Assembly: GCF_013167455.1 (NCBI RefSeq)
Contig: NZ_CP038328.1
Reading direction: 5' to 3' (one strand)
DNA from: Escherichia coli O157:H7
GTDB taxonomy: Bacteria; Pseudomonadota; Gammaproteobacteria; Enterobacterales; Enterobacteriaceae
DNA: 64,000 bases
Shown here in pieces: positions 24,001 through 27,000 of the stretch; position 1 is the stretch's first letter; each line of letters opens with the position of its first letter. Position numbers: made by a program.

Positions 24001-27000
24001 CGATGAACTGACCTGTATGACAGCGCGAATTAACCGTGGTGAGACGATACCTGAACCAGTAAAACAACTTCCTGTTATGGGCGGTAGACCTCTAAATCGT
24101 GCACAGGCTCTGGCGAAGATCGCAGAAATCAAAGCTAAGTTTGGGCTGAAAGGAGCAAGTGTATGACGGGCAAAGAAAGATTCTTCGTTACTTGAAGAAA
24201 TACAGTGTTTATTGTTCTTTTGAGATGTTGCGAAAACAGGAATTACCACGGTAAACATTTTGTAGCTGACCCATGCATTGATGAAATATTGTGGGTATTT
24301 AATAGAGCATAATTATCAAGTTGCGTAAGATGTGGAGTAATGGTATGGGCGGTGTTAGCACCGCCTTTAATTAAAGCTCAGAAAGCTGTGATAATATTTT
24401 TTCTGGAGTGGTTTCGTTGGAAATGCTAAATAATACAGCACCTTTGACTGATTCATCTCTCATTTCAATTTCACATGAATTATGGTTGTATGAGATTGCA
24501 TAATTTTTTAATGTTCTTTCGCTTTGCCACCACACCATATTTGCAAGACTTCCGTTATACGTTCTTATCTCGATTGATCCGGGCAGGGCTTTCCAGATAA
24601 CACCTCCTAGCAATGTAAGAGCGGCTGCACCAACATTTTTTGCATGATGGTTAGAACGTTCCATTACCCCTTCAGCATAACGATGAAGAATCTCTATGTC
24701 AGTCGCTTTGATAGTCATGTTATTTCCATGTAATTGCTGTGTGAAACGTAGTGTTAGTTAGGTGTTAGCAGAATATAGCATCAAAGTCGAAACCGGTAGA
24801 AAAAATATTGGTGATTATTTCGCTGCATTTGGAACTGGAACAACAATGATTATTAGCATGATTGCTTTTTCCAGTCATAAGAATGAGTCGTGTTAATTTT
24901 TTCTATTCAATAGGAAATTATCATGTCATCAGAATATGAACAACTACGGTGACTTCTGCGCTAAACGGGGACGTTTATGCGCACATACAATCCAAACTCT
25001 CTTCTCCCTCCACAGATGCAGAAATACACCTGCGATTTTTTGCATTCGGTGTTTTTGGCAGCCAAGAACAGGGAGTCTCTGTTTGTCTGGCGGCTAAAGG
25101 TGATATGGAAATCGTGATGTCTTAGCCTAAAGTAGTTGCAACAGTTGGAGCGATTATGGTGGTAGTAGTGATCATCGCGCCCCCCATATGCAAGGGTTGA
25201 CGACATTATTTATCCGGCGCTATATTCTGTGCGTTGCCGCAAAATCGGCACACGGGATTGGCGTCCCGGACATCAAAACGACGCATAACCGCGTTCGCGG
25301 TTTTTTTATGCGCAGTGCACGTCTACACAAAAATTATGGTGGGCTGTGTGAGGGCTTCTTCGGAAGCGCCGGATTTCGTTTTGACCGGTTACGCCAACCT
25401 TGCACAGTCCACCACCAGTCGATTGGCGTCGTCGGTGGTGATAGCTCAAATTCAAAACGAGATTATCGCTATGGTCACTCAGCTCGCATTCCGCGATGTA
25501 AAATTCACTCCTATAAATCACAACAACCAGATCTGGTTTACCAGCAAAGAATTGGCGGCAGCATTAAAATATGCCAGCACCAAAGCAGTAACCGACATCT
25601 ACAACAAAAATATTGATGAGTTTACTGACGGAATGTCTCAGGTCGTCGAATCAACGACCTCAGGAAATTATCGTAAGAAGACTCGCATTTTCTCCCTCCG
25701 TGGCGCCCATCTGATCGCCATGTTCGCCCGCACTCCTGTGGCCAAAGAATTCCGCCGCTGGGTGCTGGATATTCTTGATCGAGAAATTCAACAATCCCCA
25801 ATCACAAAACAATTCACTGATAACGAACTTTGCACACTTGCTTGGTTATGGCGGGCAAGTGACACAATGTTAACCGCTTGCCAAAACGTCACTCCGCTTC
25901 TTCAGGTAGCAGAACACCGCGAAGCCGGTCGCTTCACTTCAATCGAACAAGAATATCCCCGGATACTCAATAAGGCACAGGCAATCCTTGCCAGAGAAAC
26001 GGCACATGTAAAATTCCGGCCGTGGCAGGATGATAAGTGGAGTCGAGTATTGACGCATTTACGTTCTGAACGGCTGTAATAAAGTTGCGGGAGAGAAATG
26101 CCGCTAGTATTTTGTAATTAATTGAATGCTGACGGTTTAATGAGAAGTCAAGAACACTACTTGTACTATAATCGTTCGATGTTAGTGAGGGTTTGATGCA
26201 AAAAATGAAGTGATTGACCCTAAATTTGCGCGATCAGCGACAGATTGTACACCGAGATCCTGTGGGCTGGAATTTGCAGAGAAATACCGAAAATGATATC
26301 CAATATTGTTTTCAGTTCCTACATCATACCTGATAAGGGTATAATCATAAAAATTAGGATAATTCAAGTTATAATTGTATGAATAAAAACGACCTTGAAG
26401 CATTATCTGACACTAGGCTTAATGAGGCCAAATGCTTGCTTGATCATGGCTTTTTTCATGGTGCATATTATCTTTGTGGGTATGCAGTTGAATGTGCATT
26501 GAAGGCCTGTATTGCCAAGTCATTTTTACAACATGAGTTTCCAAACAAAAAAGTCGTAAATGATTCATATACTCATGATTTGTCGCAACTTCTCAAAATT
26601 GCCAACTTACATCAAATTTTGATTGCTGACGCAAAAAATGATGTTTCGTTGGAGATTAACTGGTCGGTCGTTAAAGACTGGAGCGAGCAATTTAGATACG
26701 ACAATAACATAAGTAAAGCTATGGCCGAACAATTGTTTGATGCTGTAGGTGACCAAAATTCTGGAGTTTTGAAATGGGTAAAAGCACACTGGTAATCGGC
26801 AGAGAGTTGACAAAAGATATGGAATTCTCAGGTCAATTTTTGTTAAAAAAACTCAAGTTACAGAATTTAACTATTGATGCTGCAATGTGGTTTTATTACC
26901 CAGATCTATCTTGGAGATATATTTTAGTTATCAGTGACTTCTCAGAACGTGGGCCGGCAGAAATATATAGAAAAATCAGTGAGATAAATAGAAATAGCAT

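Follow-up and report, generated by a model that had tools for sequence, protein, structure and literature searches.

A Bro-N antirepressor-like gene behind a C4/isrK RNA leader, and a second antirepressor-like gene between R and Rz, in an stx-negative prophage of Escherichia coli O157:H7

Two antirepressor-like genes in the prophage at yehV

We analysed a 64,000-nucleotide (nt) stretch of the Escherichia coli O157:H7 genome (NCBI RefSeq assembly GCF_013167455.1, contig NZ_CP038328.1), referred to below as the window. It contains a lambdoid prophage inserted beside mlrA (yehV), with host genes on both flanks, in which a first-pass annotation had picked out two antirepressor-like genes: gene A, a Bro-N type gene in a cargo cassette, and gene B, an Ant-type gene inside the lysis cassette (Table 1). 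Both open reading frames (ORFs) are exact and correspond to coding sequences in RefSeq, and both proteins belong to PHROGs 'anti-repressor Ant' families, where they match the same part of phrog_245. The placement of gene A in a cargo cassette was confirmed: it lies in a 2.3-kb accessory segment that has the replication gene P on one side and ybcN on the other. A 162-nt direct repeat delimits the segment, and each repeat copy contains a terminator-like hairpin (25017..25034 and 27339..27356). Between the repeats are an isrK/C4 RNA leader, gene A and a HEPN pair; related prophages carry different cargo between the same flanks, before ybcN. Gene B does lie within the lysis cassette, between the lysozyme gene R and the spanin gene Rz.

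Domain searches agreed with both assignments; here and below, matches to Pfam and Rfam were judged against curated gathering cut-offs. The gene A protein has a Bro-N domain (PF02498) at residues 15-101 (52.2 bits, cut-off 25.6, E = 1e-13) and a P22_AR_C domain (PF10548) at residues 111-181 (61.6 bits, cut-off 22.4). The gene B protein has a P22_AR_N domain (PF10547) at residues 5-113 (154.6 bits, cut-off 30.7, E = 1.4e-45) and a marginal ORF11CD3 domain (PF10549) at residues 122-164 (27.0 bits, cut-off 25). AlphaFold models had a predicted local distance difference test score (pLDDT) of 71 overall for gene A, with 77-92 in the N-terminal domain, and of 85 for gene B, with about 95 in the N-terminal domain; the C-terminal part of gene B was modelled as a single long helix (residues 123-180). 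The N-terminal domains of the two models have the same order of strands and helices, and both adopt the mixed alpha/beta, KilA-N/Bro-N-like (APSES/KilA-N) fold.

Direct comparison of gene A with gene B by BLASTP detected no similarity. Alignment of the two families with hhalign gave a probability of 97.6%, but at an odd register, with 7% identity and with columns of the N-terminal extension included, and we do not rely on it. NCBIfam and PADLOC searches of the two proteins gave no useful match (none at all in PADLOC for gene A), and a Protein Data Bank sequence search with both proteins and both family profiles returned nothing meaningful. Selection on gene A is purifying, with a ratio of nonsynonymous to synonymous substitution rates (dN/dS) of 0.20 against a 79%-identical E. 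coli orthologue.

The first-pass annotation had also drawn attention to the presence of two such genes in one prophage. This is nothing special, since several per lambdoid phage is the norm: P22 carries two (ant and rha) and VT2-Sakai (Sp5) carries three, namely the nin-region ant (ORF6N + P22_AR_C), roi (pRha + ANT) and the R-Rz ant. Genes A and B are thus members of known families and ordinary for such prophages; what is new in gene A is its combination of domains, while the C4/isrK RNA leader in front of it is of a known kind.

Leader RNA upstream of gene A

The DNA upstream of gene A contains, in order, a sigma-70-like promoter, an IsrK-like small RNA and a C4 antisense RNA that matches its Rfam model from end to end (Table 1). 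The IsrK-like RNA ends in an intrinsic terminator (stem 25287..25302 followed by a T run); this terminator and the promoter fit the isrK boundaries, and transcription of the leader would start near 25233-25235. Promoter-isrK-C4 leaders of the window, Gifsy-1 anrP and the Sp5 nin-region ant share 82% column identity, and their -35 and -10 blocks are invariant.

Within C4, the variable loop of hairpin 2, TCGTTTTGA, occupies 25376..25384 and the invariant single-stranded ACGCCAA occupies 25391..25397. Each has an exact complement in two places: the loop in TCAAAACGA sites (9 nt), and ACGCCAA in TTGGCGT sites (7 nt). The first target copy is inside the IsrK-like RNA (TTGGCGT at 25258..25264, TCAAAACGA at 25273..25281). 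The second follows C4, and its TCAAAACGA site, at 25452..25460, overlaps the weak Shine-Dalgarno GAGA (25459..25462) by two bases and ends 10 nt before the ATG at 25471. Only 8 of 5000 shuffles reached the loop-site match of the window.

The gene A frame is open upstream of this ATG. Another ATG, at 25336 inside C4 and exactly 45 codons upstream, gives a 247-aa form that is present in the protein database as P0001, and the longest open frame, from a TTG at 25234, has 281 codons. The ORF from ATG 25336 is the counterpart of Gifsy-1 orf45, fused in frame in the window, and this nested upstream frame recalls P4 kil/eta and a reported S. dysenteriae fusion of orf45 to anrP (PMC4825925). The isrK/C4 region at 25234..25470 is fully open in the gene A frame and its translation is a weak match to Phage_ASH (Pfam, E = 0.033). 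RefSeq labels homologous leaders elsewhere 'ash family protein', and some 'Ash' ORF calls may be translations of the conserved isrK/C4 RNA region.

Two other features sought near gene A were absent. Rfam gave no isrJ match following the gene. No LexA box (CTGT-N8-ACAG with at most one mismatch) was found within 24100..25470 or, for gene B, within 33900..34175, which rules out LexA control of either gene from a nearby box of this kind. Good LexA boxes close to a gene of interest are confined to two LexA-box-like sites, at 57057..57072 (CTGTAGTTATGTACAG) and 57086..57101 (CTGTATGGATAACCAG), just upstream of the dinI-like gene. We considered a Gifsy-like small antirepressor after this LexA-boxed gene and rejected it, as only implausible short ORFs are present there. 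Genes A and B themselves are not of the GfoA/GftA type, that is, small proteins encoded in a LexA-repressed dinI-antirepressor operon.

Co-variation of C4 loops and targets

We compared the C4 elements of six distinct cassettes, those of the window, Gifsy-1 and Sp5 and three more from E. coli, whose cargo genes are of ORF6N, Rha-family and Icd-like type. All six have the same ACGCCAA/TTGGCGT pair, no two have the same hairpin loop, and in each a complement of the loop lies just 5' of the Shine-Dalgarno of the cargo gene. When every loop was matched to every target, cognate matches were 9, 7, 6, 8, 8 and 9 nt and non-cognate matches 3-6 nt, giving a clean diagonal; between 7 and 254 of 5000 shuffles reached the cognate value. 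This comparative evidence argues that pairing between the loop and the ribosome-binding site (RBS) is functional. With a loop of TCGTTTTGA in the window and GGTTTC in Sp5, the predicted C4 specificity of the window prophage differs from that of Sp5.

Table 1. Coordinates of the genes, RNA elements and repeats discussed in the text
Feature	Coordinates	Strand	Evidence and remarks
Integrase, left end of prophage	about 11322..12608		
CI-type repressor	20857..21549	-	Pfam Peptidase_S24 67.2 bits and HTH_3 28.3 bits; RefSeq XRE family regulator
162-nt direct repeat, left copy	24893..25054	.	Repeat search (family D1), 81% identity, spacing 2322 nt
Sigma-70-like promoter TTGACG-18-TATATT	25197..25226	+	Consensus scan, 10/12 matches
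IsrK-like small RNA	25235..25307	+	Rfam RF01394, 64.1 bits, cut-off 50
C4 antisense RNA	25332..25419	+	Rfam RF01695, 82.5 bits, cut-off 45, E = 1e-14, model positions 1-87 of 87
Second C4 target copy	25423..25460	+	TTGGCGT 25423..25429; TCAAAACGA 25452..25460
Gene A	25471..26079	+	202 aa; RefSeq WP_001415151.1, 'P22AR C-terminal domain-containing protein' in identical O157:H7 genomes
HEPN-domain gene	26379..26795	+	Weak PADLOC PDC-M28A match
133-aa partner overlapping HEPN gene	26774..27175	+	No Pfam match
162-nt direct repeat, right copy	27215..27376	.	Directly upstream of ybcN
Holin	33152..33367		Just upstream of R
Lysozyme (endolysin) R	33372..33905	+	ORF list and RefSeq
Gene B	34176..34745	+	189 aa; good Shine-Dalgarno AAGGAA; WP_001056806.1, 'phage antirepressor N-terminal domain-containing protein'
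48-aa hydrophobic ORF	34745..34891	+	Start overlaps gene B stop; RefSeq coding sequence; phrog_4906 (unknown function), E = 5e-30
Rz spanin	34899..35366	+	ORF list and annotation
Rz1-like lipoprotein ORF, embedded in Rz	35119..35304		Predicted from lipobox-like LVVSAC motif
dinI-like gene, right end of prophage	56793..57041	-	

Comparison with known antirepressor and immunity systems

The closest homologues of gene A come from E. coli (79% identity; same cI-O-P...nin-Q backbone) and from Klebsiella (68% identity). Both lie behind two divergent Arc-family ribbon-helix-helix genes, in the mnt<- ->arc->ant layout of P22 immI, and no C4 RNA was found at either of these loci. Because the window has a C4 leader and the orthologues have Arc-family genes, the gene A family is found under two unrelated immI controls.

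P22 itself offers several points of comparison. P22 Ant consists of P22_AR_N and P22_AR_C, and P22 Rha of Phage_pRha and ORF11CD3. Neither window protein has the two-domain architecture of P22 Ant; instead, each has one half in common with it, and the remaining half of gene B is that of Rha: the C-terminal domain is the same, with P22_AR_N in place of pRha. Over 127 residues, gene B and the N-terminal half of P22 Ant share 50% identity. Control in P22 immI (mnt, arc, sar) is by the Mnt and Arc proteins, whereas that of gene A is putatively by C4 RNA; a dedicated control element comparable to that of P22 Ant is thus present for gene A (C4/isrK) but absent for gene B from the 270-nt spacer that precedes it. 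Rha has a late, lysis-adjacent position like that of gene B, but gene B is inside the cassette (R, ant, Rz) and rha comes after it.

The nearest counterparts among phages of the Stx type are the nin-region Ant proteins of Sp5/VT2-Sakai, 933W and Phi24B, which combine ORF6N with P22_AR_C behind an isrK/C4 leader. Sp5 nin-region ant and gene A are in the same early-right-operon neighbourhood upstream of Q, both encode P22_AR_C, and their leaders are 72.7% identical over 249 nt. They differ in that the Sp5 protein has an N-terminal ORF6N and gene A a Bro-N domain, with P22_AR_C domains only about 22% identical; in that the upstream 45-codon ORF is fused in frame to gene A but joined by an ATGA overlap in Sp5; and in that gene A precedes ybcN/ninE, whereas the Sp5 gene follows ninE. 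Phi24B ant precedes qut, and the last 104 residues of its product are reported to be 82% identical to P22 Ant (PMC3064807). The Sp5 nin-region gene is identical to the C-terminus of P22 Ant at 86 of 104 residues and so fits Phi24B ant; the R-Rz gene does not. Deletion of Phi24B ant reduced late expression from pR' to about 30% after norfloxacin, and superinfection was unaffected (PMC3064807).

In Gifsy-1, promoter, IsrK, terminator and C4-containing 'orf45' occur in the same order as in the window (isrK-orf45-anrP-isrJ), again followed by a Bro-network protein. Gifsy-1 AnrP (STM2616) has ORF6N only, without P22_AR_C, unlike gene A; the Gifsy-1 locus lies downstream of Q, whereas gene A lies upstream of it, and the loop and target sequences differ. 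Experiments on this locus showed that the isrK-orf45-anrP mRNA made by read-through from PisrK stays translationally silent, that translation of anrP rises about 140-fold when IsrK is supplied in trans, and that AnrP leads to more transcription of the antQ operon and more Gifsy-1 induction (Hershko-Shalev et al. 2016, PMC4825925). The 'orf45' region, which by coordinates is the C4 match, also yields a processed RNA of about 80 nt (PMC4825925).

A comparable arrangement is found in the immI region of P1/P7 (c4-icd-ant) and in P4 immunity (CI, seqA, kil/eta), where, as in the window, the RNA is flanked by two complementary target sets. Immunity RNA of P1, P7 and P4 lies within or upstream of a Bro-network ORF and silences an antirepressor or killer gene, and the RNA in the window is likewise placed. 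P1 Ant is under the control of C4 RNA and Icd (PMC8201110). In P4, a Bro-network gene contains both the CI RNA and its seqA target, which the C4 and isrK models of Rfam recognise (PMC10111431); the RNAs of P1, P7 and P4 are either the basis of the C4 and isrK/c4-a1b1 models or are matched by them. There are two differences. P1/P7 have an icd-like gene, whereas the window has no separate icd-like gene between C4 and the cargo; and the C4-type RNA is the main immunity of P4, whereas in the window prophage primary immunity is of the CI/Cro type and the leader is an accessory module.

Gene B in the lysis cassette

Gene B is an already annotated gene that, on sequence comparison, is standard in Stx-type lysis cassettes. 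Its protein is 100% identical to the VT2-Sakai R-Rz 'ant', with flanks of 99-99.8% nt identity; the region is 99.8% identical in DNA to VT1-Sakai, and the order R-ant-Rz is common to Stx1 and Stx2 phages, including BP-4795. Among 5426 complete E. coli genomes, 697 carry gene B; in these the median copy number is four and the maximum eight. We found no functional study of the R-Rz 'ant' gene in the literature searched. Phages of other types carry relatives: in an unrelated cassette, the gene directly following holin-lysozyme-Rz encodes a 59%-identical homologue with both domains, and P22 rha lies directly after Rz, so ORF11CD3 proteins recur beside lysis genes. P22_AR_N proteins without ORF11CD3 also occur in the nin region. 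We rejected 'ant + small ORF' as a conserved pair, as the small ORF after gene B differs from that after the 59% homologue.

The 270-nt spacer between R and gene B contains no predicted promoter, LexA box or Rfam element, so gene B is most simply Q-dependent and late; judged by position only, it is probably part of the Q-dependent late transcript. The same spacer has an 11-mer, GCGCATCTCAC, in tandem duplication at 34045..34066.

Proposed mechanism and alternatives

We consider it fairly probable that genes A and B are domain-shuffled members of the 'Bro network' under different regimes. This network is described as evolving by domain swapping, with a KilA-N/Bro-N-like N-terminal and an exchangeable C-terminal domain (PMC10111431). 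The C4 leader with its co-varying pairing, and the P22-type mnt/arc genes in front of the closest homologues, make a tightly gated, immI-type antirepressor the likeliest reading of gene A, which we hold with moderate confidence. That gene B has antirepressor activity is doubtful.

From the observed domains, folds, RNA elements, complementarity, co-variation, gene order and copy numbers we infer a course of events whose protein-protein activities, timing of expression, and decoy and swamping steps are all conditional. The leader promoter (about 25197..25226) would be constitutive and give a short IsrK-like RNA, mostly terminated at 25307. Read-through transcripts would carry, and yield by processing, C4 RNA (25332..25419), whose two elements would pair with 25423..25429 and 25452..25460 beside the gene A RBS and keep translation off in the lysogen. 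The IsrK-like RNA, having the same two sites, would be a decoy that relieves the C4 block, an effect demonstrated for Gifsy-1 IsrK. Once CI is cleaved, antiterminated transcription from pR would cross the cassette and swamp C4. Gene A protein would then bind the remaining CI-type repressor and speed derepression and commitment, matching the phenotype of the Phi24B ant mutant; it could also act on the repressors of co-resident prophages. The most obvious candidate target is the CI of the window itself. Gene B would be made late, with the Q-dependent operon, and could not trigger induction of its own prophage; most likely it would either neutralise, at a late stage, the repressors of lambdoid phages that are co-resident or superinfect the cell, or act as a late regulator in the manner of Rha.

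A number of observations weigh against this interpretation. The RF03163 c4-a1b1 match at 25220..25272, which overlaps isrK, is sub-threshold (40.6 bits, cut-off 46.7). The true N-terminus of gene A is uncertain, given its weak Shine-Dalgarno and the in-frame upstream ATG in C4. C4 leaders also precede cargo other than antirepressors (an Icd-like protein), and the leader marks a 'dangerous gene' rather than strictly an 'antirepressor'. Binding of either protein to any CI-type repressor is hypothesised by analogy, and the P22_AR_C domains of gene A and P22 Ant share only about 22% identity. In the models, the N-terminal domain is similar in fold to DNA-binding domains (Mbp1 APSES, Dachshund, DdrC), with which a DNA-directed role would be equally compatible. 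An antirepressor would be dispensable for induction, because the prophage's own CI is predicted to be RecA-cleavable. Gene B lacks P22_AR_C and is identical, at a median of four copies per genome, in heteroimmune VT2-Sakai and in this prophage, and its late expression is read from its position.

The first-pass annotation suggested that both proteins could act on heteroimmune repressors of co-resident prophages. P22 Ant and Fels-1 FsoA provide precedent by which they may do so: P22 Ant inactivates repressors of three phages (L, lambda and 21), and FsoA, whose target is the Gifsy-2 repressor, induces heteroimmune Gifsy-2 and is dispensable for Fels-1, whose own repressor is cleavable (PMC3121763), as that of the window prophage is predicted to be. 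Potential targets, by this analogy, are the peptidase-less repressors of O157 Sakai prophages Sp4, Sp6, Sp9 and Sp10 (PMC2669165), which would need an antirepressor, and gene B, if late, could only act on other elements. The 'Antirepressor' column in the same study (Asadulghani et al. 2009, PMC2669165) means Cro, not Ant, and does not document gene A or gene B. A stronger form of this proposal, in which both proteins are trans-acting antirepressors that mainly inactivate such repressors and so coordinate induction in polylysogenic O157, seems unlikely to us. The proven cross-talk antirepressors GfoA, GftA and FsoA are small, about half of the 146-aa Tum, and the Gifsy ones are LexA-controlled (PMC3121763), whereas genes A and B have no LexA box nearby; gene B, being identical in four to eight prophages per genome, holds no prophage-specific information; and Phi24B Ant, the analogue of gene A that has been tested, affected derepression of its own phage. 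We rate about as low the view that neither protein is an antirepressor, and that both are Bro-network DNA-binding regulators, or nuclease-related proteins, which like CapR or Rha act on phage or host promoters or DNA. The Bro network has been called 'DNA-interactive' and one member, CapR (PLE), is a promoter-binding repressor (PMC10111431); moreover, the C-terminal domain of gene B is found in Rha, and its long helix (123-180) is typical of an oligomerisation element. However, P22 Ant is repressor-binding according to the literature, and it has P22_AR_N in common with gene B (50%) and P22_AR_C in common with gene A; and the occurrence of gene A-type genes under two unrelated immI-type controls is as expected of an antirepressor.

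A defence role for gene A is more improbable still. The gene would then be toxic or abortive-infection cargo, silenced by its RNA leader and grouped in a defence cassette with the HEPN pair, and not a component of the switch. The HEPN gene, with its weak PDC-M28A match, and the overlapping partner do share the 2.3-kb cassette and may form a pair with a defence or toxin-antitoxin function; Icd-like cell-division inhibitors are among the other products gated by C4 leaders; and Bro/KilA proteins such as phi11 Gp07 are reported to inhibit growth. Expression of the Gifsy-1 isrK locus likewise causes growth arrest, but the toxicity was traced to AntQ and not to AnrP (PMC4825925). Gene A has no PADLOC match, and in its closest relatives the next gene has no HEPN Pfam match, while the P22-type immI context is kept.

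We retain gene A as a candidate gated antirepressor. That an stx-negative yehV prophage carries a candidate RNA-gated antirepressor, with a predicted C4 specificity unlike that of the Stx2 phage Sp5, is of modest use for O157 biology; if either protein derepresses co-resident Stx prophages, as could be hypothesised, this would bear on toxin release. Since the window and Sp5 cassettes do not cross-match, one could further imagine that C4 loop/target pairs are orthogonal RNA 'keys' by which each co-resident O157 prophage controls its early antirepressor independently of the others, and that the invariant late gene B, in four to eight prophages per cell, is a shared alarm neutralising the repressors of all sibling lambdoid prophages as soon as one of them enters its late phase. 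We give this combined idea little credence; were it true, it would explain cross-complementation of defective O157 prophages.

Other features of the prophage and its surroundings

Many E. coli O157:H7 chromosomes contain the 3.2 kb around gene A at 100% identity. Strain ECP19-598 is collinear with the window at 99.85-100% identity, except for two IS1203 copies that the window lacks (junctions 13216..13221 and 17520..17524); in ECP19-598 they break a DUF4222 gene and bet. From the Q/tRNA region to the late genes only two small pseudogene fragments are annotated, and there is therefore no stx operon: the prophage is stx-negative. The repressor has HTH_3 and Peptidase_S24 domains, and for this reason we assign it to the RecA-cleavable lambda CI type.

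Adjoining cI, between it and the leftward early genes, is a 533-aa SIR2-family gene (19143..20744, minus strand), a near full-length match to the PADLOC candidate PDC-S25 (E = 9.5e-235) with a weaker match to ThsA-like SIR2. Lambda rexAB has roughly the same position. A 115-aa gene of the VCH_CASS14 integron-cassette family (24371..24718, minus strand; PF18315, E = 5.7e-20) opposes the early-right operon. Just 3' of Q and three tRNA genes (29763..30011) is an Rfam match to STnc100 (30124..30316, plus strand, 160.7 bits), and beside it one to the anti-GcvB small RNA AgvB (30317..30378, minus strand, 96.5 bits). The late region of VT2-Sakai has STnc100 and AsxR in a similar position, downstream of stx2AB, whereas the window has no stx genes. 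In the host flank upstream of the prophage, Rfam detects a Peptidase-S11 RNA motif (1201..1281, plus strand, 72.8 bits).

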